Below are positions 9,214-50,098 of a stretch of 64,000 bases of DNA, piece by piece. Source of the DNA: a virus (Duplodnaviria; Caudoviricetes); the IMG/VR virus record IMGVR_UViG_2873737359_000001, positions 96,001-160,000 of that record; one strand, given 5' to 3'. Both the position numbers and the translations under genes were made by a program. Under the pieces are notes generated by a model. The model worked only from the letters and a program-made list of their open reading frames with translations, did no database searches and was not told where the DNA came from. How positions within the stretch are numbered: the stretch's first letter is position 1; each line of letters opens with the position of its first letter.

Positions 9214-9286
9214 TGGTCCATAGCTCAGTTGGTAGAGCGGCTGGCTGTTAACCAGCGTGTCGTAGGTTCAAGTCCTACTGGATCAG
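9214..9286 (+). tRNA. tRNA-Asn(GTT)
   Basis: Acceptor TGGTCCA/TGGATCA, loop CTGTTAA, GGTTCAAGTCC; no encoded CCA. Confidence 0.9.
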
Positions 9287-9288
9287 TT

Positions 9289-9460
9289 TATGGCATCTGA
9301 AAGTTTGGAGCGAATGGATTGCACAGGATATATATATAGTATATGTGAAATTAACCGAGTTACTAATATATTCTGATCGGGATTAAGCAATCATTCTTAG
9401 TAGGTAATAAGTGAACATGCTGAAGCATCTTGAAACGATGTTTGATATAGTTCTGCCATA
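9289..9460 (+). ncRNA. Unassigned structured RNA A in tRNA spacer
   Basis: Closing stem TATGGCA/TGCCATA, inner stem GAATGGATTGC/GCAATCATTC; shares a 13-mer with RNA B. Confidence 0.5.
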
Positions 9461-9473
9461 TAAATACGAATAA

Positions 9474-9544
9474 TGCGGGATAGAGGAGCGGATCCTTGCT
9501 AGGCTCATGCCCTAGAGACGATTGTTCGAATCAATCTCCCGCTA
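9474..9544 (+). tRNA. tRNA-Met(CAT), initiator-like
   Basis: 1:72 T-T mismatch, A11-T24, loop CTCATGC. Confidence 0.8.
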
Positions 9545-9548
9545 TTTT

Positions 9549-9619
9549 TAGGAAATAGTTTAATAGGTAAAGCTGGTGTTCACGTGGCACTAATACTGGT
9601 TCAAGTCCAGTTTTCCTAG
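9549..9619 (+). pseudogene. Degenerate tRNA (loop TCACGTG, nominal ACG)
   Basis: Good acceptor TAGGAAA/TTTCCTA and T arm; anticodon loop lacks U33 and purine 37. Confidence 0.6.
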
Positions 9620-9625
9620 TTTTAT

Positions 9626-9776
9626 GGGATGCAAAAGTAGAAGCAGATCACTTCTAAAGATTTATAATTAGCTCCCCCATTTGTGGAGTTAATTGTCTGA
9701 AAAGGATATAAAACTATAGCTCTGTATATCTGAAGTAGGTAATAAGACAGACAAAGAGGCAGAATCTTCGCATCCC
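9626..9776 (+). ncRNA. Unassigned structured RNA B in tRNA spacer
   Basis: Closing stem GGGATGC/GCATCCC, several inner hairpins, TGTCT/AGACA and GATATA/TATATC. Confidence 0.5.
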
Positions 9777-9781
9777 GCCGA

Positions 9782-9855
9782 GTCCGGTTGGTCTAATAGG
9801 TCTATGACACAGCCCTTTCAAGGCTGTAATATGGGTTCGATTCCCGTACCGGACA
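9782..9855 (+). tRNA. tRNA-Glu(TTC)
   Basis: GTCCGGT/ACCGGAC; loop CTTTCAA. Confidence 0.9.
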
Positions 9856-9859
9856 TTAT

Positions 9860-9931
9860 GTACCATTGGTCTAATGGCTATGATATTTGACTTCCAATCA
9901 AATGATATGGGTTCAATTCCCATATGGTACT
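9860..9931 (+). tRNA. tRNA-Gly(TCC)
   Basis: GTACCAT/ATGGTAC; loop CTTCCAA. Confidence 0.88.
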
Positions 9932-10032
9932 TAAAGGTATTAGGTTTGGAATCCTTAAGGATTATTTTGGATGGTGGCATTCATAACTGTAAAACCATTT
10001 GTAGCTAGTTACAATAAATTTCCTATAAAAAT

Positions 10033-10116
10033 GCTGCTTTGGCGTAATTGGCAGGCGCACAAGATTTAAGCTCTTGTGGTTTTAAAACCGTGTGGGTTCA
10101 AGTCCCACAAGCAGTA
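10033..10116 (+). tRNA. tRNA-Leu(TAA)
   Basis: GCTGCTT/AAGCAGT; loop TTTAAGC; long variable arm. Confidence 0.9.
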
Positions 10117-10214
10117 TCGAGAATGGACGAATAGAACCATTCTCGTCTTTCATTGTGTTTTTTATAGTTTTCTTCATGTTTTTCGCAGGAGGCTTTTGTC
10201 TCCTGCTCTCCTCT

Positions 10215-10300
10215 GCAAAGTGAATCCGTAAGGCACGGAACTGACCTGCTAAGTCATGTGATCCTATTATAGGATTGAATTTCGAATATTCCGCTTTGCG
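10215..10300 (+). tRNA. tRNA-Ser(GCT) with non-canonical 8/4 cloverleaf
   Basis: Acceptor GCAAAGTG/CGCTTTGC (8 bp), T stem GAAT/ATTC (4 bp), loop CTGCTAA, long variable arm, G discriminator. Confidence 0.7.
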
Positions 10301-10306
10301 TTTAAA

Positions 10307-10393
10307 GATATGTAAATTACAGCCCACTTCCTGTGGGAATTCGTAGGTGAAAATCCTGCCATGTGACTCCAGGTTATGTGATTGCAGCATATC
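10307..10393 (+). ncRNA. Unassigned multi-hairpin RNA C
   Basis: GATATG/CATATC closing stem enclosing CCCA/TGGG, GTAGG/CCTGC and CATGTGAC/GTTATGTG hairpins. Confidence 0.4.
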
Positions 10394-10488
10394 ATAAAAA
10401 AAGACAAAGAAAGAAGCTGCAGGACGCAGCTTCTACTATTATTAATCCAATATGGAATTATATACCCGCCAAGCTCAACAACAAGAAA

Positions 10489-10569
10489 TTAACAGAATGT
10501 TTTAATAACTCTTAGCACCCAACTGAGTGCATCAAGTCCTAGAATAATATATGTAATATACTTATCCAT
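10489..10569 (-). CDS. 26-aa hydrophobic peptide (type I toxin-like; not in ORF track)
   Basis: SD GAGGAGGT; MDKYITYIILGLDALSWVLRVIKTFC; own promoter and terminator. Confidence 0.6.
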   Translation of the reverse strand: MDKYITYIILGLDALSWVLRVIKTFC

Positions 10570-10729
10570 AGTTTATAAACCTCCTCTCATATCCGATTGG
10601 AGGCACATGAGCTAAAATCTGCCCTAAAAGGCGGCCGTTTGAAAATAACCGTTGTATATTGCTTGGTTTACCACGAGAGAAAATCTCCCTATGAACTCTT
10701 TTGGAGTCCTCGACCTCTAGCAGGATGGT

Positions 10730-10758
10730 ATCGTATCATAATTGGATAATCTTGTCAA
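10730..10758 (-). promoter_or_regulatory. Sigma-A promoter antisense to the tRNA array
   Basis: TTGACA-17-TACGAT with TG extension. Confidence 0.6.
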
Positions 10759-10818
10759 GTATTAATTGGTGAATGACTACTGGGTGGTCTGGCGATCCGG
10801 AAAGACGGATGAAATGTT

Positions 10819-10891
10819 GCTAGAATAGCTCAATTGGTGGAGCAGCTGATTTGTAACCAGCAGGTTTAGGGTTCGAGTCCCTATTTTAGCT
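10819..10891 (+). tRNA. tRNA-Thr(TGT)
   Basis: GCTAGAA/TTTTAGC; loop TTTGTAA. Confidence 0.88.
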
Positions 10892-10894
10892 TAT

Positions 10895-10977
10895 GCCGTG
10901 TGTCCGGGTTGGTGAGGAAGCAGTCCTGAAAACTGTTGGTCCGAAAGGACTTGCACGTTCGAATCGTGTGCACGGCG
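10895..10977 (+). tRNA. tRNA-Ser(TGA)
   Basis: GCCGTGT/GCACGGC; loop CCTGAAA (C33); variable arm GTCC-GAAA-GGAC. Confidence 0.8.
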
Positions 10978-10985
10978 TTTATCAG

Positions 10986-11002
10986 AGAGTTTGATCCTGG
11001 CT
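10986..11002 (+). other. 16S rRNA 5'-end fragment
   Basis: AGAGTTTGATCCTGGCT = first 17 nt of the universal 27F site; no rRNA gene follows. Confidence 0.7.
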
Positions 11003-11033
11003 TGATATTTTCATTTTTAGAAAGGCTTGGTGT

Positions 11034-11105
11034 GCATCTTTAGTATATGTGGTAATACAATGGTCTCCAAAACCATAGAACAGGGTTCAAGTCCTTGAGG
11101 ATGTG
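11034..11105 (+). tRNA. tRNA-Trp(CCA)
   Basis: GCATCTT/AGGATGT; loop CTCCAAA. Confidence 0.88.
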
Positions 11106-11113
11106 TTTATTAT

Positions 11114-11196
11114 GGGAGAATATTCCGTAGATAGTAGCGGGGCGGTCTGTAAAACCGTTGTCATTGACTCGGGTGGTGCAACTCCATCTTCTCCCA
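11114..11196 (+). tRNA. tRNA-Tyr(GTA)
   Basis: GGGAGAA/TTCTCCC; loop CTGTAAA; atypical T loop TGCAACT. Confidence 0.8.
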
Positions 11197-11333
11197 CTAG
11201 GTTGGCAAATTAAATCAAAATACCATAAAACATCGTAGATATAGTTTTACCATGAGGATGCTTGCGTCAGATTTGGTTTATAAAAGGTTTTGTCTCTGAT
11301 CATGACAGATAATGAGCCTTTGAGTCTACACAT

Positions 11334-11405
11334 AGATATATAGCTTAATGGATAGAGCGCACGGCTACGAACCGTGTAATATAGGTTCGAGTCCTATTAT
11401 ATCTG
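11334..11405 (+). tRNA. tRNA-Arg(ACG)
   Basis: AGATATA/TATATCT; loop CTACGAA. Confidence 0.9.
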
Positions 11406-15785: not shown

Positions 15786-15865
15786 CGACATATGGCGGAA
15801 TTGGCAGACGCGCCAGATTTAGGTTCTGGTGTTTATTCGTGAGAGTTCGAATCTCTCTATGTCGA
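15786..15865 (+). tRNA. tRNA-Leu(TAG)
   Basis: CGACATA/TATGTCG; loop TTTAGGT. Confidence 0.88.
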
Positions 15866-25838: not shown

Positions 25839-28567
25839 ATGATTACTGCCGACATGTACAGATCGCATCTTAATTCATATGGCAGTAATTTAGCACAGGT
25901 TAAACAAAGCCAATCTAATATGGTTGTAAATAGTGCCTTTACTGCGGATGCACAATATAAAAGAGTTTATATATTAACAAAAGATGGATGGAAATTCGAG
26001 GATGCAAAGTTTCAAAAGCACGCGAAATATTCTATTCTTAAAGATGCCGTTGATTATTACGTTCAGTTTCGCCCAAAAGTACATTACTCTGTTGGTAGTT
26101 ATCTTTTTATTCCGGACGATACTGCTCACGAAATTAATATTCACGGTAAAGACTTAGAACATCCATTATCGCTTCCAGAAGATCAAATCACTCAATTGTG
26201 GTTTATAGTCGGTCGTGATTATGATCCATCTTTTGTTAGATATAATGTTTTGCAATGCAATTGGAAATTTAAATGGATATACAACAATAAGTTATATACA
26301 TGCTGGGGTGCGAATAGATCGGCCAACAGCTACACAAGCGGTAAATGGACAGATTTTGTATGGATTTTCTGTACATACATGGTCCGCTGTAAAGGGAAAC
26401 CTTGACAGCGCATTCTTTCGGATATGCTGGAATTAGGCTGTACACATAGCCGTCCTAAAGCTTACTAAACTACAACATAATGATGGAATATGCATAAGTG
26501 TGAATGTCGCGAAAGCAGAAAAAATTAGTAAGATGGTATAAGCTGAAACAAAAGCTTTTATATAATAAAAGTGCTAAGTACTACTACAATGGGAAATCAG
26601 CAGGGAATAGTTTAACTAGGCTTGCCCTCATCGACTATCGGTTGAAATACCGTTAGGGAGAAGTCTCCCGAAGTGAAAGACTCCTAAGTGCTTAATTGCA
26701 TATGGTGAATGATATAGTCAGTGCTTACATGAAAGTGTAAGAAAAGTTGTTTATAAATTAATATTGAATATTAAGACCAGACAGCGGGTAGCTCCTGTTT
26801 TGTTATACCTCCTATATAACAATTATGGTCTTTTTATTATACATAAATTTAGGAGGAATTTTTATGTCAAAATTATCAGTACAAAAAATATTTGAAAAGC
26901 ACGGAGACGAAATTATTAATCTTCGGAAAAATGGTATGCAGATGCAAGAAATTGGTGAAAAATTTAATTTGAAAACTCAAACTGTGAGCAGCTTTTTGCG
27001 AAGAAATAATATAAGAGTTCGCGGATTAAGGAATGAAGAAACAGAAAATAAGATAGTTCAATTATATAATGATGGAGTGTCTATGAGAGAAATTGCTTCA
27101 AATTTTCATTTTACACAAGGAACCGTCAGAGATATACTTGTTAATCATGATGTGCATATCAAAACTAATTCTGAATCACATAGGATATATGATATAAACG
27201 AAAATTATTTTAATCAAATAGATACGCCTAAAAAAGCTTATATTTTAGGATTACTATATGCAGACGGTAATAGAAGTAGCAGATCTAACACAATTTCAAT
27301 TCGTCTTCAAGAAAGTGATAAAAACATTTTAGAAAATATTAAAAAAGAATTGAATGCAGAAGTGCCATTACGATTTATTGATTATTCTAATGATTCTAAA
27401 AGACAAAACCAGTTTCTACTAGCAATAAGTAATGAACAAATTGCAAAAGATTTATATAAATACGGCATTGTTCCAAGGAAAGAATTTAAATTAACCTTTC
27501 CTAATTGGTTAGATAATAATCTCCTATCTCACTTTATAAGAGGATATTTAGACGGTGATGGTTTTATTTCAAATAACCCGAAAGAAAAACGAGCCAATAT
27601 TACCGGAACCGAAAATTTGTTACTTGGAATTAAAAATATTTTAGAAGAACAATTAAATATACATTTTAGTATATATTCACCTCATAATAAAGATACTAAT
27701 ACTAGAACGTTAGCTGTAGCTGGAGGGAATCAAGTTAAAAAATTTTTGGACTACCTTTATAAAGATGCTGATTTATATATAGAAAGAAAATACGACAGAT
27801 ATTATAATATGTACTGTGCTTAATATAAACAATCCTTATTTAAAGTAACGAATTAAATAAGTAACATTCAGGAATATTCATCTGCGCTTGACAATTTGAC
27901 ATCAGCGTGGATGCCAGACATTTATTATGCTTATGGTAATAACTTATACGAACTTGGATTAGATGATAATAGAACTGTGATGCATGAACAACGTTTCATG
28001 CTCTCAAATAATATTCTTGATCCTAAAGTATATCAGGTTACGAAAGTAACAGATCTTAATCCTTCTGGAGTAATAAAATACTCTATTAAGCAGGATGAAT
28101 TGGATAATAAACGGGATAATGTAGAATTACAAATATGTGATTATTATACGGACTCCGGTGATCAAAAAACTGAGACTATACAAAAGCCTCAAATGATGAT
28201 TACGGAATCTCAAATCAGGTGGTTAACTCTTAATGATGATGGAGAATTAGAACCTATCTATGATAAATCTAAGCAATGTCTATATCTAGGAAAGAATTCT
28301 TATTTCGAATACAAACTCCCATATCAAGACTTAAAATCCGAATGGAATCTAAGTGTATATGATAGAAAAAACGAATTATCTGACGAAGACAAATCTTATT
28401 ATGAAGGATTAATGAAAATAACAGTTATGGATAATGTAACTATTTCAATTAAGCCGGGAAAGGCTAATAGTCTTATTGGTAAAAGATTTATTCTTTCAGC
28501 GACAGATAATAATGGCGATAACCACTCTTCTATCGTACTGGAGGTGGAAAAATGGTCAGAGACATAA
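25839..28567 (+). CDS. Neck / head-closure-like protein, spliced (exons approx. 25839-26354 and 27872-28567, about 403 aa)
   Basis: Removing the intron gives in-frame ...SYTSGKWTD|EYSSALDNLTSAWMP... Confidence 0.7.
26355..27871 (+). mobile_element. Group I intron (IA-type) with homing endonuclease
   Basis: P ATGCTGGAA 26424, Q AATCAGCAGG 26595, R TCATCGACTA 26628, S GATATAGTC 26711, P3 TCTTTC/GAAAGA, two extra helices between P7 and P3', P9 GAAA loop, terminal G; 5' boundary inferred from reading frame. Confidence 0.9.
26864..27823 (+). CDS. LAGLIDADG homing endonuclease with N-terminal HTH-like repeats
   Basis: AYILGLLYADG and HFIRGYLDGDG; SD AGGAGG before ATG 26864. Confidence 0.9.
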   Translation: MSKLSVQKIFEKHGDEIINLRKNGMQMQEIGEKFNLKTQTVSSFLRRNNIRVRGLRNEETENKIVQLYNDGVSMREIASNFHFTQGTVRDILVNHDVHIKTNSESHRIYDINENYFNQIDTPKKAYILGLLYADGNRSSRSNTISIRLQESDKNILENIKKELNAEVPLRFIDYSNDSKRQNQFLLAISNEQIAKDLYKYGIVPRKEFKLTFPNWLDNNLLSHFIRGYLDGDGFISNNPKEKRANITGTENLLLGIKNILEEQLNIHFSIYSPHNKDTNTRTLAVAGGNQVKKFLDYLYKDADLYIERKYDRYYNMYCA

Positions 28568-33860: not shown

Positions 33861-36800
33861 ATGAGTGATATGAAATTAGGAGAGATTAGTCTTGATCCTG
33901 TTGCTGAAGCAATTGTTAAAGGGGTCAATATGAAAGCAAATTCTAAGGCTAATAAAGAATTTCAAAAAACAATAGATCAAATAAAAGAAGGCACAGACAT
34001 GCCTGTTAGATTTAACCCCAATACTTCCGAATTTGATAAAGCTAAAAAAGAAGCTGAGAAACCAATAAAGACTCCGGTTAAATTAGAGACAGAAAATGTT
34101 GATCTCCCGCTTCTAGGGAAAACTCCTGTAAAATTATCAATTGATAAAGATAGTCGAACTGCTATTAAAAAAACTTTAAAGGATGCAGAAAAAGCATCAA
34201 AAAGTTTAATTGATTCTGCGGCAAGAACTGTAAAAAAAATAGGTTCCGCAAATTATTTAGAAGAACTTACAAAAAATGAACGACAAGCAATTTCTACTGC
34301 AGTGTCTAAAGTAAAACGTAACCATCCTGAAATTTCAGATGATAGGTTAAAAACATTTGAGCAAAATCTTATATTAGATAGACGAGCAAAAAAAACACAT
34401 GAAACATTATCAGAAAATTTCAAGCTTCCAGATTCTTCTTCTAAATCATATGGACAAGAGATGTATGAAGCTGCTATTGCAGCTGCAAAGATTCAGGCTG
34501 CTGTTAAAATCAGAGAAGATCTTCATAACGATGAAAGCTATACACAATTTTTATCAAAAAATGATAGAAGCAAAAGTTATAATGGCAACACTCTTAAGAT
34601 ACCAGGAAAATTTATAGATCAAATACAAACTGGTTTGTACGAACATTTAGGGGTTACAGAATTAGGCAATGCTCTTACTTCTGGAAATAGCTGGACTGGA
34701 ATACAAGATCGTATGGTACGATCAATTGATTCTTTTAGTGCAGGTTTAACAGATGTTATAGAAGCTTCTATTCCAAAGACTTCTTCTGGAGATCGTATCA
34801 CTAAGAAATTTCAGAAAAGAATAGATTCTGCTGTTAAAATGGCTGTTGGTATGTCTGTAGATGATGCCATTAATTATTTAACAGGGAAAAGGGGCATTAA
34901 AGAAAATAAAGAGGCGTTATCTTTATTAGGAAAGAAAAAAAATGGAGAATATGAATATTCTGTTGATGATATACTTGGCATATTATCAGAGAAGGCGCCA
35001 ACAGGTGGATCTGAAAACGGTGGCACTAATTATAAAGGATTTAGTCAAATTTTAGGAGCCTTACAGGTATATAACAGAAACGGAGCGTCTGGATTAAGTG
35101 CAAATCGTATTGAACGATTATCAGAACTTGTTGATGTAATTACCTCTACTTATACAGGCAATGATGGTTTCGTTGATTATGATGCAAAAACCGTAATTAA
35201 GTCAATCGATACAGCATTAGATAAAGTTCAGGACGAAGCCGAAAAGGCGTCAAAAGAATCAAAAGAACAACCTAAAGTAGCGGAAAAACCTAAATCTAAA
35301 AAATCTAATGAGAAGTCCTCTTCTACAACTTCTAAAAAAGAATCTGCAAAGACTGAGACTAAAACGGTTGAAGAAAAAGAACCGGGAAAAATTGAAAAAT
35401 CTAAAGAAGAATTTGTTTCTTCTACTCCAAATAAATCCCATCGTAAAGTAGTAAAACCTCCTAAAATCTTAAAGGGCAATTCTCAAGCCAGAGATGTGAA
35501 TGGTAATTTATTATCTTGGGATGGACAAGATTGGAAAATAAAATCAAATTCAGAATCCGATTCTTTATGGGAAAATATACCAGAGAATCCGTCTCCTGAA
35601 TTTTTAAAAAGATTTGAAAGAGCTAAAAAATTTACCAAAAATCATCCTGAATTATTTGGTCCAGATGCTCTCCCTATAGAATTTGATGAGGAAGCTTTTT
35701 TGAAAGATTTTTTGAAAACATTGAATGATGCTCCCCCTATAAAATTTGATGAGGAAGATTTTGGGAAAACAATGAATGATGGAGTAAGTGTTAAAGTTCC
35801 AGATGCATCCAAAGATATAAAAGATGGAGCAAAGCAAATAAAACAGGCGTCAGATACAATAGAAAAAACTTCCAAAACCGATCAAAAAATATCTGATGAC
35901 AAGAAAGAATCTTCTGATTCTATAAAACCAAAAACTCATTCATCTTCACATTCGAAAAAAGGAAATAATCAACAAGATGACGATCAAGATCAAATAAATA
36001 CTGGAAATGATGTAAAAAAAACAAAAAAAGAATTTACATCACAATATAAAGAAGCCATTTCTGATATTAAAGATCTAGGGAAAGCATATGTTAATCTTCA
36101 AAATGCTATTTTAAATCCAACAGGTAAAACTTATAAAAAATCAAATGGAAAAATAGGATCTTCATATGAAGATTTTATTGATCAGCAATTATCTGATATT
36201 GAAAATAAGGAAAATCGAATTAGGTCATTTAACAAAAATGTTCATAATCAAAATAAGACAAATCCTTCTCAAATTAAGGATCAGAATATTTTTGATAGTT
36301 ATGAGAAAGAATTGCAAGATAGTCAGTTACAGCAAAGTCAATTTGATGATAATCTAGTTAGTCTTATGAGATCTGCATACGAAGTTCGTAATAATGCTCA
36401 AAATGAAATACTTAAAACGATTGGCAGTCCTACACGAAAAGGAGAAATTAATTTAGAAAAATTTGCAAAGCAGCAAGAACGCTTTGCTAAAAGTGATTAT
36501 GTGTACAATTTGCTTAGTGATAAAGTAAGCAAACGTAAAGGAAATGCATATCAAGAATCTGCCATATCTGATATTGCGGAATCTTCAAAAACAGATAGAG
36601 AGTCTATTTTACAAACGAATTTTGGTACGTTGTCTCAACAAATCAATGATTATGTATCATCTATTGAAAGAGCTGGACGCGCAAGCGAACAATTCAAATC
36701 AGATTTTGGAAAAATACAATCTGATTTGAATAAAAATGATCCTTCTCAATTTAAAGATACTGAATCAGGTATGAAAGAATATCTTGACTTTATGACAGAT

Positions 36801-39800
36801 ATTCGCAGTCGTTTTAACAGCAATAAAGATTTTTATGAAAATGGCATCGGAAAATCTACTTTAGATTATGAAGCTATCAAAAATAAATTAATTAAAGCAG
36901 AAAACTATAATACTAAAACAAATGAGTATAAATCAAAAGTTTTTGGTTTTCAAGAACAATGGGATGGTATTATAGATAGTTACAGTTCCGGAGATATAGA
37001 GAAAATGAAAGAAGCGGAACATGCCGCCACTTCTCTTATATCCACAATGAACGACTTTTATAAAGAATCATCTAAAAGTGATAAATATAAAAAGACAACG
37101 TCGAAAGGTACTTTAGTAGAAGACACTGTAGGTAAGGTTCAAGATATTAATGATGCAAAACAATCATTAAAACAATTTACCGATGAAATGAAATTAACTA
37201 ATAAGGTGTCAGAAACCATTGATACATCAACAGGTAAGATCACACAAAAATTCAAAGATGATTATTCTGGAAATATAATTACTATCACAAGTAATATTGA
37301 CGAACTTAACAATGCTCTTAGAACAACTCAAAAAATTCAATCATCCGGTTCAGGTGGTTCAGGCGGCTCTCTTCTGGGAGGATTAAAAAATCTCGTATCC
37401 GGCAACTTTAAATCAATTGTTGGTGAAATAGGAAGTAGCGTAGCTAATGTTCAAATTCTTGGCCAAGCTTTCCAGCAAATGAAAGATGGATTTAATACAT
37501 TCCTTGATTTCAATAAAGGATTAACTAATATCAGTTATACCATGGATATGAGCAAAGAACAGCTCTCATCTCTCGGATCATCTGCTGTTGATATGGCCAA
37601 AGATCTTTCTATGTCCTTGGATAATACCATGGATATCTATCAGATCTATGCAAATATGAATACTACACCTAAGGAAATCCAGGAAACAGCGAAGCCTACT
37701 GCTATTCTGAGTAACTTAAGTGGTGTAGATGCTTCTACCGCCGCCGATCAGGTACAGGGTATTCTTCAGCAGTTCCATATGCTTGAAGATGGCTCTACTA
37801 CTGCTGCCGATGCTTCCATGCACGTAGTTGATGTATTGGATAAGATTTCCGGAAATATCGGTATGGATTATGCTAAGGGAATCAAGGTTATTTCTGATGC
37901 GGTACAGGCTTCCGGTCAGGTAGCATTTGATGCTGGAATGAGCTACGAGCAGTTAGCTGCTGTATCTGCTAAAGTAGCTGAAAGAACTCGTGAAGATGGA
38001 TCTTCTATTGGTAATGCAATGAAGACTATCATAACGAGAATCAGTAAAGTTGGATCTATGCCAGAATATGCTGCAGATGTAAGTAATGAAGATCTTTCCC
38101 AGGCTTCAGAGTCTTTACATAAAGTTGGTGTAGAAGTCTATAACACAGATGGATCATTCCGTGATCTTGATACAATCCTTTCAGAACTTAATTCTAAATG
38201 GGACGGATTGACAGACGCTCAAAAAGCAAATATTTCATACAATGTTGCAGCCACGAGGCAAACTTCAAAATTCAAGAATATACTTGAAGCTTGGACAGAT
38301 TCTATGAATTTGGCAAACGAGGCCACTACAACCAGTGGTAATGCCGAAGCCAATCAGGAAAAATATATGGAATCTTTCTCCGGAAAGATCCAGGCAATAA
38401 AAACTCAGATGGATGAGTTTTGGTTAAACTTCTATAATTCAGACCAGGTATCTGGAGCTTTAGATTTTGTACAAGGTTTAACCGAAGGATTTACAGGGCT
38501 TGAAGAAGCCATTGGTCCAATTCCTACTCTAATCACGGCTGTATTCTCAGCATTGACCGTAAAAAATGCAGCAACAAAAGGATTAGACTTTTTAGTAGGG
38601 AAAGATGGACAAGCAAGTGGACTTGCAAATGCCGTGGGTTGACCCAAATTCGGGGTTACAGTTATTATTTCCGATTAATAATGAGCCTATCTACATAAAG
38701 ATCGTGAGATCAATGTGTGGAGACGAGCGGCAATAAATAACTAGAGGATTAAAACGTTGAAACCTGCTATTCTATAATATAGTGAATCGGGCGAAAGCCT
38801 GCAGGTAACGCACGTGCCAACCTGGTTAACGTCTAGTAATATGTGAAACATTAGTAACAATTGCGGAAGCAATGATGAGGGAAGCATATGAATAATCAGG
38901 AAGTGTAGAGAGCGCACCCTTCCTCGGAGTATATACAAAATCCATATATGTATATGCTTTTAATGAATGTGCCTATAGTAATGATGGTGAAATCCATCCA
39001 GTACTCTTCTACTGTTATTTTAAATGAAGAAAAATATTTTTAGGAAGTGCCCCTATAAAAGAGGCACTGTTATTAAAGGTTTTATCCTTTAATCCTCGGG
39101 CAAAAAAAATGGTCCCCGACCGTCTCACTTGCCGCCCGATGCAACGCTTGCAAAGTCACAATTAAAATTAGCCGAGATCTCATTTATGCTAACTTTAATA
39201 TAGAAACTTAAAGCTTCTGGATTATGTTTGAGTATCATCCAGATAGCTGCAAGAATCAATATTGAAATTATAGCTAATATAATTATTGACCCTACAAGCT
39301 TAATTCGTTTTGAATTATTGTCCATATTTCACCTCCTGTCTGCAGTGTTTATGGCACTGCCATAGGAGACAAATTGACTCTAACCAAAACGTCAGAATCA
39401 TGATGACTTCTGATAATTTACCACCTACACTTTTCTGAAGGTATTATGTAAGAAATATATAGTGCACTTATATATTCTACACATGGTAAATTATACCAAT
39501 TATATTCGAAATGTATAGTCAGAACGTTTGATCTGGTTAATATAAAAGTGCATCACAAATAGAGCAGGACGATTGATCCTGCTCTATTCTATTTTTCTCC
39601 AATATCCTCCAAAGGAGATTTCACATGAAAAAGTTATATAAATCTAATCTAAAATTTAATCTTAACATACTATGTAAGATAATTAAGTTTGAACTGAAAA
39701 TAATTACAAAGCATAAACGACTCGCAGAAAAGTGGTTTGAAAAGATCACAACACTAGAATGTGAGTCTATATTTGAGAAAATGGACGAGCGGAAGAAATA

Positions 39801-42800
39801 TCTATAATTTGCGCCACTTCTCTTTGTCTATTACTTCTTCCCGATTCTTCTATTTTCCTCTTCTACCTGAAAGGACTAAATACCCATGAACAAATTTCAA
39901 CGAATTTTACAACATTATGGACAAATCAAAAATTCTACTACTGGACCGTATACAAAACCTTACGAGTTCAGAAATATGACTGATTACGAATGGTACAAAA
40001 AATGTTGTTCTGATATATCACAAAACTATGGGATACTGCTCAACCAAAATCAATCATATTTAAGCTATTGGTTTCATAGGAAAAAGGCAGATGTAAAATT
40101 GTTATTGTCTATTGTTGTTTCCTCCATTTAGAAAGGTGGCGATCCATTATGCAGACAAACCACAAGGTTCTTTCTACTGTTATAGATATTACACAGTTAC
40201 TTTGCAAAAATTCTTGTACATATGATGAAGCGTATAAAATATTAAATATGGTTACTGCCGAATTTAAACAGCAGCAAGAAAATTTAGAATACGCAACATA
40301 CGATGACTATTTTGCAGGTACAAAAACTGATGATGTAAGTAATAAAGTCATTGCACCATTAAATCATGCGGGTGGTTATTGATCTTACTTACTTCCTGGT
40401 TTCCAACGATATCCGCACTTCTGACAAAGATTATGCTTTTTGCTAGATCCCCAAAATCCTGTTAAAAGTGAATATCCGGATTCTTCCGTTGTCACTGACG
40501 TTGATCCGCACTTTGGACAGCGAACGGTTTTGGACGGATCTGGAATATCGGCAGTGTTGAATTCGAAGTATTGGAAGTTGTGGTCGATACAGGTTGTAAT
40601 GAATTTGTAGGCAAGATGAGCTGTATTATTTTGTGCATACCAATTAAAACGTTCTCGAATAAGCCGAGTTATTTTAGTAGTAACAGATAGATATTTTTGC
40701 TGTCCTTCAGGGCAATTAACATTGTCAAAATTTTTAGGGTTATTAAAGCGTTGAAAATTTTCTTTATAGAATCCTTTTTGAGCTTCGTTCGATAATGAAT
40801 TATATAACTCTTTAAAATGTGTTAAATCGTATTCTACTCCATCGACCAAACAAATATTTTCTTTATGAATATTGCTCAAAGGGAAACCACAGTGTATACA
40901 AGCTGGAGCTTTATCAGAGACATTACCGCCACATTCAGGACATTTAATTAACATACCTTTATCCCTCCATTTTCTTTTAATTTTATCATACTATAGTCAT
41001 TAAGTAAAATCGGAAATCTAAAAAAAGCGATAAATTCAAAAGATACGGATACGGTGAAAAGTGTTCTTAGCGGAATGGATCTTGATACTGCTGGTAAATG
41101 GTTTGGACGTTTAAATCAGGAAAATGGAAAAACTATAATTTCTGAAGATATTTTTTCAGATATATTTTCACAATTATTTGGTGAATTAGGCGAAGACACT
41201 ATCAAAAAAGCCATTGCTAAAGGCACTGCTTCAAAAGGTTTCAAAGGTGCACTCTCTGCTGGTATTAGCGGTTTTGCTGGTGGATTAGCTGGTATTGGAG
41301 AAAGTATTGGTACTGTAGGTACAGGATTAGTATCATTTCTGGGTTCTATCTGGCCTTTATTAGCAGTTGGTGGAGGAATTTTTGCAGGTATTAAAGGATA
41401 CCAGGCATTAAACGATAAATTCACTCTTACTAAAGGAATGGCGGACAAACATTATTCTCAGTCCACACAGGAATATGCAAATAACCAGTCCGAACTGGAA
41501 TCCTTGCAGTCTCAGAGAGATACCAACCAAGAGCGTATTTACGAACTCCGGGCCAAAGAAAATCAGTCTCCTGACGAAAAAGCAGAATTGAGTCAACTTC
41601 AGGAAGAAAATAATCTTCTTGATTCTCAGGTAGCTATAAAAGAAAAGTCTGTGGACGTATCTAAGCTAAAGGCAGCCAATGATGCCAAAACGAAACTTGA
41701 GAAAAAAGGATACCAGAAGAACTATAAAAAGGAAGCTTACGATAATCAAGATAAAACTTCAATCAATGATTTAGATGAAGCTTCTGAAATGATTGATTAT
41801 TTAAATCAGCTTAAATCTGAGTACAAAGATCGTGTTCAGAAAATTGCGGATGAAGGTAGAGAACCAAGTTGGATTGAACAGAAAGGTTTGGATAGCACAA
41901 AGAAAAAGATTGACAGTTTGGAATCAGATGTTGCTGATAAGGTAACAGAAATCTCTGACACCGCTAAAAGCATGAAGAACGATGATGGATCTCTTATTGA
42001 TGAGAAATTCAAAGATACTGTTGCTTCTGCTGATGCTGTTGTACAGAAATATCTGAACTCTACAGACTCTACCACAGCCACTTCCGATAAGATGAATAAC
42101 ATCTTTGCACTCTCTCAATTCTCAGATCTGAAGGATAAACTCATTGCCGCAGGTAAATCCGGTGGTACAGATGCTATCCAGAAAATGATTGATGACACAG
42201 ACGGTCTTAAAGATGCAATGAATAATGCCGGACTCACTGCGGATGATCTCAAGGATAGTATTATGTCTATAGCAGATCCTGACGCGAAGAATCTGGAAGG
42301 CATCAAGGAGAATCTTGAGGACATATTCGGTAAGGATGGTCTTGGACAGTCTGATTTCTTCAAAGGTAAAACGGATGAAGAGCTTGAGAACTTCTGGGAT
42401 TATCTCCAGGACAACAACTATAATCCTAAGCAGATGAACTGGAATGAGGAAACCACTAAGAAAAACTTCGAGGCAGCACAGGAAGCTAAGAAGAAAACTC
42501 CAGAGGAATCTGCCACATTCGCTTCTAAATTCAAGAATGCAGCAGAAGATACTGCTACTGACATTGATACTGTAACAGATAACTTCCAATCTGACATGAA
42601 GAATATCCAGTCTGCTATGGAGTCCGTAACAAACGGTACATTCCAGAATTCTGATATGGCAGATCTGATCCAGCAGTTCCCGGAATTAAGTAATGCCAGT
42701 GGTGATTTGAAGGATAATCTTCAGGATCTTGCCATGAATAAAGGGGCTGAGGCCATTGGTAAGATCAGGGATTCTGTAAAGGATGTTACGGACCCGAAGC

Positions 42801-45800
42801 AGTTAGCACAGGCGGATAAATATGTTCAGAGTATCATGGATACGATGGACATGAGCGATTTTGATGTAAATGAGGCAGACGTTAAAGACATTGCTACAAA
42901 AAACATCAAAAAAAATGCAGATAAGTGGGTTAATAGAGATAACGCATCAAAAAAAGTATCTGAGTTAATGGAAAAATATTCTGGCAACGAAGATGCTATG
43001 AAGGCCATTGTTCAACTTTCTATGGATCCTTCTATGGCTGATGCCAGTATAGAAGAATGGGAATCTAAGATTGAAGATCAAGAAATTCAGATAAAGATTA
43101 ATGCTGATACCAAAGAATTAGATAACCTTTCTAAATCAATGACCCGTCTTCAGACAGACGCTTCTAATACTCAGACAGATATGAGTAATAAGTCTGCTTT
43201 CAACCAGAAAATAAATAAAGATGATTACGATGCTTTAATTAAAAATGGCGATGCTCAAATTAAGAACTATGACGAGCAAATCGCACATTATAAAAATTTA
43301 CAGAAAATACTAAAAGAAAACAATATTGATGCAGAGAGCACTGAGCAATGGAAACAATGGCAGGATAATATTGATGCAGCACAGCAGTCTATAGAGAATA
43401 TGAAGGCTTCTCAGGCTGAATGGGGCGATGCGATTAAGAATCTTCCTATTACAGATATAACAAATCTGTCAAGTGCTATCACTACTGCTATGAGCGAAAT
43501 GCAGAGTGATACCGGATTAACCACAGATAGTGTAAAAAATCTGGCTACACAGTTTAGTGATCTCGGTGATATTAACATTGATAGCTTATATACTAGAACT
43601 GCAAAAGGTTTACAGCTTAATACCGATCGTCTCCAGGATTATATGGAGCAACAGAATGATTTTGTCAATTCTGATTTTGAGAACAAAGTTAAGGAGCAAA
43701 AGCAGATTGTTGAGGATGCTTTTAAAGCATATCAGAATGGGGATCAATCACTCGCAAATTATACTGCAGAGCAGAATGCTCTCGATGAATTATTAAATCG
43801 TAGAAATCAATATTTCGCACGGTATCAAGAGGCTCAGGAGCAATTTACTGATTTCCAGAAGATGATCAATGCCGAAAACGCAGCTAATGCTGGCGACGAA
43901 TATACCACAGCTAAATCAAAACTCGATGAATTAAAAGAGTTATATGACAACAATCTTATTGGAACTGAAAAGTTTAAAAAAGGTGCTGCTTATTTCTCAC
44001 AAAACGGATTTGAAGATCCAGAAAACTTCATTGAAAATTATAATCATCTCAAAAAGTATTACACCGATGATTCTTCCGGTCCACAGAAATTCTTAGAGGA
44101 TTTAAATAAGAAAGGTCTCGCTACATATGAGACTCTTGCAAATGGTCAAAAGCAATGGGCTTATTCATTTAATGATGTCAAAGACGCTGCTGATCAGATG
44201 GGAATGAGATATGAATCATTCCAGTCTATATTAGGAAGACTTTCTGATTATGGTTTTGTGAATAATCTTGTTACTTCTACTCAGGATGGAGAACAACAAA
44301 TTGACGAGCTGACAGATGACCTTATTACAGAGAAAAATAAGCTGTCAAAACTGAAAGCAAATGGAGCCACAGATCAGGCTATTCAGGATCAGGAAAATGT
44401 TGTTGATCAACTTGAATCTAAAATTAGTGGTGTAAATCAGGCAGTAACAGATTATGCTAATGGTGAAACAGACAGAAAAGTTCAGGATTTAAAAGAAGCA
44501 AAGCAGATTATCAAGGATTCAAAAGAAGCCTATGATGAGGCAATGAAATCTGGCGATACGGATCTCGCTCAGAAACTTCGTAAAAATATCCAGGATACTG
44601 CTAAAGATAATAACATAGAGTTGACTCCGGAACTAAATATTGATGAGAAAGCTCTTGATAAGCAAATTGACAACTTACAAAGTGAAGCTCGCGAAAAGAG
44701 TGTACAGAAATATAAGGATATCCAGGATCAGCTCCATAATGGACAAACAGAATGGACAGATTCTGAAGATTTCAATGCAGCGGATGCTATTACCAAATTA
44801 GAACAGGCTCAATCAGAAAACGCAGAAGGATTTAATAATCTTGTATCTAATATGAAGAAATATAATCTTTCTGACTTGGAATCTATGATTTTTGATAATG
44901 GTGCATATGAATCTGAAGATCAAGGTCTTCGCGATATGGAAGATCAGATTCAGGGCTTTGCTGAATCTATAGGACTTACTACCGATCAAGCTAATATGCT
45001 CGTTCCTATTCTTGAGGCAATGGGTACTTTAGATATATCTCCTAAAGTTGATAATTCAGAGCTTGAAAAGACCGTGACAGATACTCAGACTGCAGAGCAG
45101 ACTCTTGAAGAAACAACAGGAAAACAATATAATTTTGATTTTAACACAACAGACCTGGATACTATTCAGAAACAGGTTGATCAAGTTAAAAAGGATATCG
45201 AGGACACTTATCTTAAGCGAGATGAGAACGGCAATGTCATTAGAGACGAAAACGGTATCCCTACTTATGATTATAGTGCTCCTGGTGCAAAAGAAACAGC
45301 TCAGATTTATGATGCTTCTATTAAACAACAGCAACAGGCAGAATATCAAACCTCAGCTTTAGGCCAATCAACATCTTCTGATGAAGTAGTAAAAGCCGCC
45401 CAAGATTATATGACAGCTAAGAATGCAATGGATGTGGAAACACAGAAATATAATCTTGGTATGGAGAACAAGTTACGAGAAGCAACGGATAATGCTACCA
45501 ATGCTATGAATGCATATGCTGAAGTTGCAGATAAAAATGGCAATCCATTAGAAACTGACTTAAAAAATATTGATCCACAAAAACTTGAAGATCAATTGTT
45601 AGGAGTAACTGATAAGGATCTTAAAGTAAAAGTCGAAGCAGATACATCCGATGCAGAAAATGATATTCAAAGTCTTGAAAATCTCGAAGGAAGTTCTATT
45701 ACTATCAATGCAGACGTTTCTACAAATGGTGGTGTTGAAGAATTACAAGATTCTCTTGCTTCTATTCCTCAAGGAGTATCTACTACTGTGACATGTGATG

Positions 45801-48800
45801 TAGAAGGCGAGTCTGATGTAGATAATTTGGAGTCTTCTATGGAGTCTATCCCGGATAATACTCCTGTTACAATCGATTGTCACGTTGAAAATCAAGATCA
45901 ACTTGATCAGATTAACCAAAAGGCAGACGAACTTAATGCCAATGGAAAACAAATAAAAATCAACGCTACTGTTGGAGAAGTAAAAACTGATGGAGCAACT
46001 TCTAATACGCCTATAAATGTAAAAGGCAATGTCACAGAAGTTTCAGGAAACCCCTCTGGCACTGTAGATATAAAAGGCAACGTCACTAAAATCTCAGGAA
46101 ACCCTTCAGGTACAGTCGACGTCAAGGGTAATGTTACATCTGTTACAGGTAATCCATCAGGAACAGTAAATGTCAAGGGAAACATCACAGGTATAACAAA
46201 CGAAGATGCAGTAAAAGGTAAGGCTAATTATACAGTAGGACATTCACCAAAGAAAGTTCCTGATGCAAGCGGAAAAGCTAATTTTGGCCTTGGAAAACAT
46301 CCCGAAAAAGCCCCTGATATTTGGGGTACAGCTCATTATACTGGGGATTTCCCAACATCAGCTCCCACCCTTTCTGGTACTGTAGTATATCACGCACAAA
46401 TTCTAGGAGCACCTTCTGGCGCAAAATCAGTTGCAACAGGTACAATGCTCTCTCCTGCTCATGCTTCAGGTACGGCTTATAATGTTTTAAATATGAAGCG
46501 ACTCTCTCCTGCTCATGCCGGAGGAAATGTTGCTATCAAACATAATGAACAAGCTCTTGTAAATGAAGTAGGTACAGAATCTATTGTTCGTAATGGTGTA
46601 TGGTCACTTCTTCCAGGCGGAGCACATCTTGAGAATTTAAAACAGGGAGACATTGTATTCTCTGCTTCTCAGACAAAAGATCTTCTTGAACATGGACGTA
46701 CAGCTGGACATGCACGTGCTTATGCAGAAGGCACTGCTTCTCTCACACATGCTTATGCTCGTTCTTCTGCTGCTAATGGCGGTGGAGCTTTTGGCGGAGT
46801 TAGAACAAGAACTACCACTTCAAACCAGTCATCTAGTTCTAATAATTCAAATAATAATAATGCACTTCAAACAATCGCAGATAATACAGATTCAATTGCG
46901 GGAAGTTCACAGCAAACAGCAGACAACACTTCGAATTGGGAAGATCCATGGAAGAATGCAGTAGACTGGTTCGAACGGTATAGCACCAGAATAGATAATA
47001 AGTTGGATCTAAATAGTGCTATTTCTGATAATTATCAAGGAAATAAATCTAATAAGAAAAATCCATTTAGTATTGCTACAAAAAATAGCACTTTAGATTA
47101 TTCTATTGATACAATCAAAAAAGAAATTCCAAATTATCAAAAACAACGGGATTATTATGCTTGGCAAGCTGAGGCTTATGGAGATAAAATTGGTCTTTCT
47201 CAGGATCTACGTAAATTAGTTCAGGAAGGTAAAATCCAGGATATCGAAATTTACGATGAAGATACAAAATCTAAAATTGAAGCATATCAGACATGGTACG
47301 ATAAAGTTCATAGTGTTGAATCTTCTATTGAGGATCTAAAATCTAAAGAAGCGGATCTTTGGAACCAAAAATTCAGTAATATTACTGACCGTTATGATGC
47401 ATTAAAAGGTATTTACTCAGGAAAGAATGATATTCTTAGTGCAACAAATGATTATCGAAAAGAAACAGGACAATCTGAATCTTATAAATCGGTATACGCA
47501 AATAATATTAGAGCGCAAAGAACAAATCAAATCAAGCAGAATGCTATTACTGCTGAGGAAATCAAAAAATATCAGGCAGAGTTAAGAAGTCTTGGAAAAG
47601 AATATGGCACTCAGTCTACTATTTATAAGGAAGCGCAGTCTACTCTTCTTGATCTAAATAAGGAATATCAAGAAGGGAAAACAGCTGTAAGAAATTTCAC
47701 AAACCAGCTTAATGAGTTAAAATTAAAAGATCTTCAAAATGTAATTGATAGATATGATAACGCTTCTGATAAACAATCTTCTTATCGCGACTGGAAAGAT
47801 GCTACACATTTCAAAGGAACATCCGGTGTTACACAGAATGATTTACTAGAGGGCATTAAAACTAATGACAAACTTATTGATGCCATATCTGCTAGAAGGG
47901 ATGAGGTTCAGCGTCAAATGCTTGGACTTTCCACGAGTTCTGATGATTATCGAACATTGGCAGACGAGCTTGCACAATTAGACGAAAGGACTGCAAACAT
48001 TGCTAAAAACAATGCAGAATTACGTCAGCAAGCAACTCAGTTACGTACAGACCAATATGATAAAGCAATAGACAAACTTGAGCGTATCACAACTGACTGT
48101 GAAAATATTCAGAGTATGATGGATTCAGACACATTTTTATCTGATGACGGATCTCTTACTACAAATGGTCTTACTAATATTGCTTTAGAAAATCAGTCTA
48201 TACAGACTAATCAGAAAAAAATTGCCACATTAAAGCAGGAATTAGCAGAAGTTCAACAAATGTATGACAATCATTGGATGACCGAGGAACAATTCTTATC
48301 TCAGAGCCAACAGATTATTTCTGATATTAATTCTGCGGCGAAAGATATTTCTTCAAGCCAACAAAATTTAATCGATACATATATTAATCAGATTACAAAA
48401 GAGAACGAATATTTACAAGACAATATCTCTAAACGTAAAGAAGCTCTTGAGGCCAAAAAGGATTATTATGATTATGATAAGACTATTAAGAATAAGACAA
48501 AAGATATCAATGTAATCAAAGCACAGATTGCTGCTCTTGAGGGAACAACAAACGCCGTTGCGAAGGCAAAATTAGAGCAACTTAAAGCAGACCTTGTAGA
48601 TAAGCAAGAAGATCTCGAAGATACCAAGTATGACCATAAGATTGATATGGAATCTAAAGGCTATGATAATCTTGCAGATCAGGCAGATAAGGCTTTGGAT
48701 TCTACTACACAGGCAGTTAAAACCAATGCCGATATGCAAAAATCTGTTATCGATAATATGCTTAAGGAAGTACAAGGCAATTACAAGGATGTATATGATA

Positions 48801-50098
48801 ATATTACAAACATTGTAAAAGATTCTGGTGCTCAAATATCTAAAGAATTTGATAGCATTCTTAAAAATATTGGAAACGGCAAAGGTAATTTTACTGTTAC
48901 TGTTACAAGTAAAGCTAAATCTTCTGTAGGGAAAACAAAAATTTCTAATGCTCCTGGAGTTACTGGACGAGGAAAGACTTCCGGAGATAAGAAAGTAAGA
49001 CGAACTGCTAAAGACGGAAGCTCTGCAAATAACGCTGCCGATGAAAATGGTACAGATCGACAGGCAACACAAGCTGTTACTGCTACTCCGAAATCTATAT
49101 CTATAGGTGTTGGAAATAGCGCGACTGTGAAAATTGGATTTAAGCCGACAAATGCTACCTATAAAGATTTTACATACGAAGTTTCAAAAAAAGGAATTGT
49201 TTCAATTTCTAAAGGTAAATCTTCTATTACTGTAAAAGGCACGGCGGTTGGCAGTGTAAAAATTACTATCAAAGGTCATGGCGCAGGATGTAAATCTACG
49301 ACTGTTTCTGTAAAAGTCTTAAAAGATGGAGCCAAACATACAACAATTGCAAAAAACGTAGCAAAATCTATGAGAACATCATTAGACACCAATGATGTTA
49401 CTAAGATTCTAAATGCTACAAGCGGTAAAAAAACGGTAAAAGAAGTTGAATCATACGTAAAACAATATGTTATTCAAAATAAAAATAATAATGTAACAAA
49501 AACTGCATTATCTAAGTGGTTTAAAGCTCTTCCAGCTTTTAAAGGTGATGTTTCAAAAGTTACTGGTATCGTTACAAAGCATTTAGCCCAAAAAGGCAAA
49601 AAAGCTACCGTTGCTGATATTCAAAAGGCTGCATCTATTCTTGGATATAAGGATTATAAAAATGTGGCCAAATGGAGTACTACTCAGAAAAACGCACTCG
49701 TATCTAAATTAAAAGGATATGGATTTGCTAATGGTGGAATCATTCGTAATCTGATTCCTGCTAATATGAGTACATTATTTGGTGATGCTATTATGAAAAA
49801 TGGCGATACAGGTCTTATATCTGCTCGACAGGGAGAAACTGTATTAACAGAGAAGTTCACAAATATGCTCGAACCAACTGTGACTGCTATGAACGCATTT
49901 ACAGATATGTACCAGAAAATGAGCGCTCCTAATGTAAGTAGTGTTCCAACTCAGCAACAAAATATATTCCAGCCAGAGTATAATATTAATATTACTGGAA
50001 TGGATCTAAGCAAGGCTACTGAACTGAAAAAGGTTATTCGAGGGGAACTCAATAATCATGATAAAGCACTTGCAAAAGAATTTAAAAAGTTCAGTTAA
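33861..50098 (+). CDS. Tape measure protein, spliced (exons 33861-38639 and 40997-50098; 4626 aa)
   Basis: TP901-type tape-measure core in exon 1 ([24 protein letters not shown]); exon 2 frame opens right after TAG 40994-40996; join reads ...ANAVG|SLSKIGNL... Confidence 0.85.
39125..39325 (-). CDS. Intron-borne small membrane protein (66 aa)
   Basis: SD AGGAGGTG; TM segment [23 protein letters not shown]. Confidence 0.75.
   Translation of the reverse strand: MDNNSKRIKLVGSIIILAIISILILAAIWMILKHNPEALSFYIKVSINEISANFNCDFASVASGGK
39558..39597 (+). terminator. Terminator-like hairpin inside the tape-measure intron
   Basis: AATAGAGCAGGA/TCCTGCTCTATT then CTATTTTT. Confidence 0.55.
39625..39807 (+). 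CDS. Intron-borne hypothetical protein (60 aa)
   Basis: SD AAAGGAG. Confidence 0.5.
   Translation: MKKLYKSNLKFNLNILCKIIKFELKIITKHKRLAEKWFEKITTLECESIFEKMDERKKYL
39886..40131 (+). CDS. Intron-borne hypothetical protein (81 aa)
   Basis: SD GAAAGGA. Confidence 0.55.
   Translation: MNKFQRILQHYGQIKNSTTGPYTKPYEFRNMTDYEWYKKCCSDISQNYGILLNQNQSYLSYWFHRKKADVKLLLSIVVSSI
40149..40382 (+). CDS. Intron-borne hypothetical protein (77 aa)
   Basis: SD AAAGGTG; converges on the Zn-ribbon gene. Confidence 0.6.
   Translation: MQTNHKVLSTVIDITQLLCKNSCTYDEAYKILNMVTAEFKQQQENLEYATYDDYFAGTKTDDVSNKVIAPLNHAGGY
40385..40954 (-). CDS. Intron-borne Zn-ribbon protein (189 aa)
   Basis: N-terminal CPECG...CIHCG and C-terminal CPKCGS...CQKCG; SD GGAGG. 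Confidence 0.85.
46012..46190 (+). repeat. 51-bp (17-aa) tandem repeats in the tape measure
   Basis: (V/I)x(V/I)KGNVTxxxGNPSGT, about 3.5 copies. Confidence 0.8.

Follow-up and report, generated by a model that had tools for sequence, protein, structure and literature searches.

The window analysed here is a stretch of 64,000 nucleotides (nt) of the IMG/VR virus record IMGVR_UViG_2873737359_000001 (Caudoviricetes; positions 96,001 to 160,000 of the record) and is part of a 3.7-Mb genome that was searched whole. It contains a phage tape-measure gene that is interrupted by a putative group I type intron carrying a cassette of small genes. Two long open reading frames (ORFs), ORF1 and ORF2, lie on the same strand (+; all positions are those of the window) on either side of a 2.4-kb gap. 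ORF1 was called from 33861 to 38642 including its stop and encodes 1593 amino acids (aa). Its 1593 codons form exon 1 of the tape-measure gene (33861-38639, +), which ends in ...ANAVG and matches the family PF10145 (PhageMin_Tail) at aa 1242-1458. The in-frame TGA at 38640-42 is the first codon of the intron. ORF2 was called from a GTG at 41054 to 50098 (3014 aa), and its frame is open already from 40997. Exon 2 (40997-50098, +) begins with SLSKIGN and has neither a start codon nor a ribosome-binding site; no start codon precedes the GTG at 41054 in the window. When 38639 was joined to 40997 by computation, the frame was kept and a protein of 4626 aa in all was obtained, with the sequence ..ANAVG-SLSKIGN.. 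at the junction.

Related loci were collected from IMG/VR viral contigs (many of 90-250 kb) and from Lachnospiraceae metagenome-assembled genomes (MAGs). Of the related IMG/VR loci, 46/46 are interrupted at the corresponding position by a gap of 1.6-3.6 kb. These contain 38 distinct intron variants of 1587-3608 nt; the window is included in this number, and all variant counts below refer to it. The motif SLSKIG, directly 3′ of the intron, is invariant in all variants. In the window and in two relatives, L016 and L017, a TAG stop stands immediately before SLSKIG and the codons that follow differ by synonymous changes. No Shine-Dalgarno sequence was found upstream of SLSKIG in any variant, whereas the genes carried within the intron have strong ones. 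Twenty uninterrupted tape-measure proteins of 3-5 kaa match the C-terminus of ORF1 (46-66% identity) and then part of ORF2. Homologous tape-measure proteins encoded by one long ORF run on past the end of exon 1. The phage GenBank collection gave no DNA match to the intron and none to the N-terminus of ORF2.

The intron was placed at 38640-40996 (+; 2357 nt), with boundaries that are kept in the 38 variants and agree with covariation. Its 5′ splice site lies directly after U38639, and its last base is the terminal G, G40996. The first ~335 nt past the ORF1 stop are non-coding, yet they are 73-81% conserved, the same as the exon, and show compensatory changes in the alignment. The last 10 nt of exon 1 (38630-38639, +) are divided between two helices, UGCC (38630-33) entering an additional helix and GUGGGU (38634-39) entering the paired region P1. 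The internal guide (38680-38690, +) consists of AAUGA, the P10 strand, followed by GCCUAU, the P1 strand. In P1, GUGGGU pairs with GCCUAU at 38685-90, and the U38639·G38685 wobble is invariant in 13/13 sequences. In P10, UCAUU of exon 2 (40997-41001) pairs with AAUGA at 38680-84, so that P10 is contiguous with the P1 guide. The additional exon-intron helix lies upstream of P1 and joins exon positions 38630-33 to intron positions 38729-32. Two true double compensations (U-A to A-U and C-G to U-A), which affect coding bases of exon 1, were seen in this helix. The helix meets P1 and P2 in a three-way junction; we know of no standard group I name for it. A 5′ splice site after U38635, with the 38727-32 helix taken as P1, was tried and rejected, as neither a P10 nor a conserved terminal G at an in-frame 3′ site was obtained with it.

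The 3′ end of the intron (40984-40996, +) carries the 3′ strand of P9.0 (40989-95) and the terminal G. This G is present in 38/38 variants, and the two bases before it vary (AU, UA or GU). P9.0 pairs 38974-80 with 40989-95 and thereby encloses the loop that holds the carried genes, here called the cargo. It covaries by clade (UAUAGUA/UACUAUA in the window, ACUGU/ACAGU in L035, AUGAG/YUYAU in the L019 type), and the pairing is maintained though 1.6-3.6 kb of unrelated cargo separate its strands. P9.0 is unusually long: 7 bp, or as many as 12 bp on our reading if it is extended across a bulge.

The ribozyme core was located at 38691-38973 (+). Its helices follow the canonical order P3-P4-P5-P6-P7-P3′-P8-P7′ with a P3/P7 pseudoknot. 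P2 lies at 38691-720 (+). P3 joins GAGGA (38744-48) to UCCUC (38921-25), P4 joins 38754-57 to 38812-15, and P5, with two hairpins, joins 38763-66 to 38802-05 (all +). P6 is a long arm with a GNRA loop (38821-38900, +). P7 is formed by G38910, a bulged A and 38912-16 with 38968-73 (+), that is G-(A bulge)-GCGCA/UGUGCC, and P8 lies at 38926-60 (+). The joining segment J6/7, between P6 and P7, reads AAGUGUAGA, and J8/7, between P8 and P7′, reads UAAUGAA (both +). The core is followed by the 5′ strand of P9.0 and the P9 hairpins (38974-39014, +), the hairpins being at 38983-98 and 38999-39014 (CUCUUC loop). P4, P5, P6, P7, P8 and the P9 hairpins covary, P7 with one covarying pair (CG/AU/UA). In J6/7, an invariant GUAGAGAG (38905-38912) shows complementarity to CUCUUCUAC, the loop of the final P9 hairpin (39004-39012); this loop is complementary to GAAGA(G) just downstream as well. 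This complementarity could represent a tertiary contact or an alternative pairing, and it shows no covariation.

Covariation was counted over 13 sequences. Paired cells amounted to 98.5%, and 20 pairs were changed on both strands, against 8.0 ± 1.9 after shuffling (0/500); controls with slid partners gave at most 3 such pairs. When the distant homologues were included, 99.8% of cells were paired and 15/37 pairs showed double changes, in an alignment that was fitted to the model. A first model, with P7 at 38821-27/38894-900 and P3 at 38740-52/38826-37, paired less well (95.5%; 85% for P3), and P7 at 38910-16/38968-73 was adopted because of its better pairing in this test. A group I type ribozyme dividing the tape-measure gene, as proposed in a preliminary description of the window, is therefore backed both by covariation and by exon continuity. 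The identification of 38640-40996 as a group I intron, made on comparative sequence grounds, is highly probable, and from it we infer that the tape-measure RNA would be spliced.

The structure was also followed in divergent homologues. The covariance model R1, built on 38808-38973, gives 174 bits in the window and 104 bits in two homologues from Lachnospiraceae MAGs, L121 and L122. Their introns are at the homologous tape-measure site, in genes whose products are only ~27-30% identical. In L122 the exons end ..UAGAU | UCACUCAA.. and the guide, UUGAGUG-G-GUCUA, is altered to match both of them: P1 becomes UAGAU/GUCUA and P10 becomes CACUCAA/UUGAGUG, both strands being changed. P6 is compensated throughout, P4 and P5 appear from the printed sequence to be changed on both strands, and the L122 intron also terminates in G. 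No further copy was found with R1 in the genome, where there was one weak match (E 0.19), or in 150 genomes belonging to the same family.

Five ORFs are present within the loop closed by P9.0, two antisense (66 and 189 aa) and three sense (60, 81 and 77 aa). The ORF calls agree with the preliminary description in number, place and strand, and the pairing of 38974-80 with 40989-95 bears out its statement that they lie between P9 and P9.0′. The 66-aa gene (39125-39325, −) encodes a single-pass membrane peptide with one hydrophobic helix; its family is found in 35/38 variants and had no match in Pfam or PHROGs. The 60-aa ORF (39625-39807, +) has a strong Shine-Dalgarno sequence; no homologue of it was found, and it had no match in the phage GenBank collection. 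The 81-aa ORF (39886-40131, +) is rare: one homologue cluster (69% identity, E 1e-29) was found among 1.8 billion representatives, with no family match and no protein-atlas match. The 77-aa ORF (40149-40382, +) converges on the zinc-ribbon gene; in the protein atlas it clusters with viral hypothetical proteins, and its family is present in 8/38 variants, the window included. The 189-aa gene (40385-40954, −) encodes a double zinc-ribbon protein with CxxC..CxxC at both ends (Pfam Zn_ribbon_3, 8.5e-8).

As claimed earlier, no homing endonuclease or insertion sequence (IS) gene can be recognised in the loop. Pfam, PHROGs and PADLOC gave no LAGLIDADG, GIY-YIG, HNH, transposase or defence family for the five ORFs; the single PADLOC match was marginal (E 0.0097, to the 66-aa peptide), and the other four ORFs had none. 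The cargo of the relatives likewise gave no endonuclease match in Pfam and PHROGs, and no match to a TnpA/TnpB family.

Signals for expression of the cargo were called by consensus reading only. A predicted antisense promoter (40980-41008, −; TTTACT-17-TAAAAT with TG) covers the 3′ splice site together with the opening codons of exon 2. The relatives and L122 have a −35 box, TGACA, that spans the splice site, and an extended −10 box, TGnTATAAT, 17 nt further on in the antisense direction, so that by consensus every lineage shows an overlap between the predicted promoter and the 3′ splice site. The cargo genes have consensus promoters, strong Shine-Dalgarno sequences and terminator signals of their own, in keeping with the earlier suggestion that they would be expressed from their own promoters. 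Upstream of the 66-aa peptide gene, a promoter-like site (39517-39490, −) is followed by a terminator-like hairpin (39400-39375) in the leader. This leader (39375-39517, −) may be of the attenuator type. On the sense strand, a terminator-like hairpin with a 12-bp stem and a T run is present inside the intron (39558-39597, +).

The cargo differs among relatives: 11 gene architectures were distinguished among the 38 variants. In the commonest (19/38), a zinc-ribbon gene, a DUF6173 gene, a gene for a 270-aa protein and the membrane peptide gene are all antisense, and this set of four is fairly stable among the relatives. Others add a DUF2513 gene and the sense 77-aa ORF, or have a 425-aa protein in place of the middle part. 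The shortest intron, that of L016 (1587 nt), has only the peptide and zinc-ribbon genes. Most relatives carry antisense cargo only, and in gene-called contigs the zinc-ribbon, DUF6173 and 270-aa genes, in one case with a 60-aa ORF, form an operon-like antisense series. The AlphaFold2 model of the 270-aa protein was poor (predicted local distance difference test score, pLDDT, 62; below 50 in the C-terminal half) and unfit for a fold search.

Differences were also seen close to the window itself. A block of ~0.9 kb (~39519-40408), with the terminator-like hairpin and the 60-, 81- and 77-aa ORFs, is unmatched in L016, the closest relative. Metagenomic contigs from two runs, near-identical elsewhere, skip 39588-39848 (~260 bases), which comprises the tail of the terminator and the 60-aa ORF; their joints are 39587>39849 and 39593>39854. 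This looks like a recent indel within the cargo. The combination of a conserved ribozyme and splice site with variable cargo, which the preliminary description had proposed to look for, is thus what the 38 variants display, and the cargo is neither invariant nor recognisable as a decayed endonuclease or IS.

The zinc-ribbon gene is the constant member. It was found in 38/38 variants, where it invariably runs antisense and occupies the intron's 3′ end; 40-60 nt separate its start codon from the splice site. L121 and L122 have one antisense zinc-ribbon gene each at the same 3′ position. Their proteins, of 336 aa in L121 and 259 aa in L122 (the latter with membrane helices, as read from the sequence), share only the ribbon motifs with the 189-aa protein and differ in architecture. 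The cargo was described earlier as occupying a neutral landing pad in which genes are swapped; the swapping is apparent in most of the cassette, but the site is not a free one, as the zinc-ribbon gene is fixed.

In the 189-aa protein the ribbons are C5/C8/C19/C22 and C146/C149/C177/C180. The protein matches phrog_2546, a family of unannotated function, over its full length (3e-9). Among 268 homologue clusters only the two ribbons are conserved, and the helical middle is hypervariable. The fold check suggested in the preliminary description was carried out on an AlphaFold2 model of this protein (pLDDT 81): Foldseek gave no PDB match at E ≤ 0.001, only local zinc-ribbon similarity, and no nuclease-like fold. 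Four distant family members (P0189, P0213, P0221 and P0229) are likewise encoded between tape-measure halves. Two members that are 40-45% identical (P0212 and P0173) are encoded outside introns, in tandem arrays of 2-5 paralogues. The arrays (L112:5001-6163, L119:4001-6937, L120:4001-6386) are flanked by an HTH_3 regulator and a serine recombinase (Resolvase) on integrative elements of gut bacteria; the ribbons are conserved among the paralogues and the middles differ. Such diversified arrays beside a regulator and a recombinase suggest accessory or conflict genes rather than intron-specific enzymes.

The locus is best explained as a group I type intron that lacks a homing endonuclease and carries a cassette of accessory (moron) genes in its terminal loop, an explanation to which we give a probability of roughly 0.6. 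The intron would be vertically inherited and fixed in the tape-measure gene of a clade of large phages and prophages of Lachnospiraceae. The first ~375 nt would constitute the ribozyme, and P9.0, P10 and the additional exon-intron helix would tie the distant 3′ splice site to the core. Because these three pairings would hold the splice site, the loop could tolerate 1.2-3.2 kb of foreign DNA. The antisense zinc-ribbon gene, with its predicted promoter over the 3′ splice site, would be the founding and constant member of the cassette. Behind it, small genes would be gained, lost and replaced, namely those for DUF6173, the 270-aa protein, the membrane peptide and DUF2513 and, in the window, the three sense ORFs. 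As a moron, the cassette would be transcribed in the lysogen, in the direction opposite to that of the late operon, and it would serve phage-phage or phage-host conflicts, not intron mobility or tail assembly. The more specific roles proposed earlier (immunity, toxin-antitoxin, anti-defence) found no support in the databases or in the fold search.

Several observations weigh against this explanation. P3 is invariant, hence compatible with the model and without support from covariation, and the sequences of P7 and J8/7 depart from the consensus GACUA/UAGUC. The Rfam group I model RF00028 gave no match at its gathering score and none at E ≤ 10 on the 3.1-kb gap or on the 421-nt core, none at the intron in the search of the whole genome, and none in ten relatives. 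RF00028 is a sequence-weighted sample of subgroups, and its failure makes the subgroup assignment less certain but leaves confidence in the topology unchanged. Most relatives have an ATG directly before SLSKIG, from which ORF2 could start separately. The sense terminator-like hairpin comes after the core and before the 3′ splice site. A search of IMG/VR and JGI metagenome contigs for an intron-less allele bearing the predicted junction found none; nor did the metagenomic contigs matching the region, one presumed RNA run among them, contain a splice joint. For the cargo proteins there is no demonstrated or predicted function, and a zinc-ribbon gene that stays constant over such deep divergence is as compatible with an intron-linked role as with a moron role.

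This last point leads to the alternative that the zinc-ribbon protein is the intron's own: a new mobility or splicing factor, or a gene that regulates splicing or tape-measure expression together with its antisense transcript, the other ORFs being hitch-hikers. Zinc ribbons commonly bind nucleic acids, and a gene that keeps its place and orientation in every variant and at the tape-measure site of L121 and L122, with a predicted promoter over the 3′ splice site in each lineage, is what this alternative would lead one to expect. It is nevertheless unlikely in our view. The protein matches no nuclease or maturase family or fold, and what is conserved of it, in the family and towards the differently built proteins of L121 and L122 (one with membrane helices), is limited to the ribbons. 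Its paralogues on integrative elements are far from any introns, and the lack of empty sites in IMG/VR and JGI contigs gives no sign of ongoing homing.

The same overlap between promoter and splice site can be read in a further way, which we regard as rather improbable. The ribozyme and the antisense zinc-ribbon gene would then be a single co-evolved unit in which the 3′ splice site doubles as the antisense −35 box, and transcription of the cassette in the lysogen and splicing in the lytic phase would exclude or regulate each other. If this were true, the intron would not only contain the cassette but also work as a switch, and the target of the zinc-ribbon protein may be the intron or its DNA site.

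That the RNA is not spliced at all is very unlikely. Two tape-measure proteins would then be translated separately, the 375-nt RNA would be a 3′ untranslated region or a regulatory element, and the genes between would be an ordinary moron island. The silence of Rfam, the ATG before SLSKIG in most relatives, the terminator-like hairpin after the structured RNA and the failure to find a spliced or intron-less form in the contigs examined can all be cited in its favour. It does not account for one contiguous guide that pairs with both exon ends and covaries with both in L122, or for P9.0, which joins the two ends of the intron and covaries. The intron-final ATG of most relatives is in turn explained by P9.0 and the terminal G; in the window, L016 and L017 its place is taken by TAG, and the codons beyond are kept through synonymous changes. 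Initiation at SLSKIG would also lack the Shine-Dalgarno sequence that the cargo genes have, and the tape-measure homologues are single proteins.

Splicing in trans, in which the late transcript ends at 39558-39597, exon 2 RNA starts in the cargo and the two are joined through P9.0, P10 and the additional helix, would make use of the hairpin with its 12-bp stem and T run and of the unusual length of P9.0 and the extra exon-binding helix, but it is far-fetched: the terminator lies in the block that is unmatched in L016, most relatives have antisense cargo only and a sense terminator is therefore not a general property of the intron, phage late transcription commonly reads through terminators, and no second sense promoter is supported by the present data.

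An endonuclease-free intron with a moron cassette can be compared with several known arrangements, one of them in the window itself. A second group I intron (~26400-26760), in a gene of the morphogenesis region, has a canonical GAUAUAGUC J8/7-P7 motif and a weak RF00028 match (26549-26741, 22 bits, E 0.003), and is followed by a sense ORF of 332 aa with LAGLIDADG_3 and helix-turn-helix domains (26825-27823). It shares the phage and the group I type with the tape-measure intron, but has the canonical motif and a classical LAGLIDADG ORF. Further insertions of ~1.6-1.75 kb were observed within exon 1 of four relatives (L036:6795-8410, L044:6789-8395, L032:6801-8453 and L061:6564-8322), at aa ~1464-66 or 1389/90 of P0001. 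Each has one sense ORF of 304-413 aa, with a GcrA-like N-terminus or a DUF4379 treble-clef, and Rfam gave no match to them; they look like ordinary intron-plus-ORF units. Also in exon 1, a pig-metagenome contig has 1124 other bases in place of 38018-38321. Elsewhere in the window, ten tRNA genes form an array (9214-11405 and 15786-15865, +) that precedes the structural genes.

In introns of the phage T4 nrdD (sunY) type, the core is at the 5′ end, a looped-out ORF near the 3′ end encodes a homing endonuclease on the sense strand, and the 3′ terminus forms short pairings. The tape-measure intron has the same layout, with a 5′ core, a long 3′ peripheral insertion and short 3′ pairings that would bring the splice site back. 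It differs in that as many as six genes, none with an endonuclease signature, occupy the loop and are led by an antisense gene with its own predicted promoter. IStrons, which combine a group I intron with IS200/605, also have non-endonuclease cargo at the 3′ side of the ribozyme; here, no cargo ORF matches TnpA/TnpB, and the genes are small accessory genes, not a transposon. The cassette resembles prophage morons in its predicted promoter, ribosome-binding and terminator signals, its orientation against the late operon, its variable presence and its paralogues next to repressor and recombinase genes. Morons normally lie between genes, whereas this cassette is inside an essential gene and would be excised from the mRNA by the ribozyme.

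The closest precedents in position are the group I introns TMP-IVS1-3 in the tape-measure protein (TMP) genes of Bacillus cereus-group prophages (Tourasse and Kolsto, 2008; PMC2504315), where a prophage tape-measure gene is interrupted as in the window. Some copies have no complete homing endonuclease and are passively inherited with the phage (PMC2504315). They are of subgroups IA1/IA2, and the passages of that paper devoted to them do not describe passenger genes (PMC2504315). The intron of the window differs from them in escaping RF00028, in its divergent P7 and J8/7, in its additional exon helix and in its mostly antisense 2-kb cassette.

A full-text literature search yielded no description of a divergent ribozyme together with an antisense non-endonuclease cassette and a promoter at the splice site, which is weak evidence of absence. 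To our knowledge, the combination of a divergent ribozyme, a multi-gene, mostly antisense non-endonuclease cassette that persists through deep divergence, and a promoter predicted over the splice site is new. The usual view of group I introns is that they either carry homing endonucleases or are empty relics. In the present locus, a putative ribozyme keeps a multi-gene cassette inside an essential structural gene across deep phage divergence, while genes are gained and lost. Since Rfam misses it and it has an additional helix that binds the exon, the ribozyme would extend the range of sequences known for bacterial group I introns. Such loci would continue to be missed by gene callers, because they are annotated as two tape-measure genes and hypothetical proteins. 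The predicted overlap of the antisense promoter with the 3′ splice site would provide a testable link between lysogenic expression and late-gene splicing. If the cassette is expressed, self-splicing introns would add to the sites at which phage genomes can safely accommodate moron, defence or counter-defence genes.

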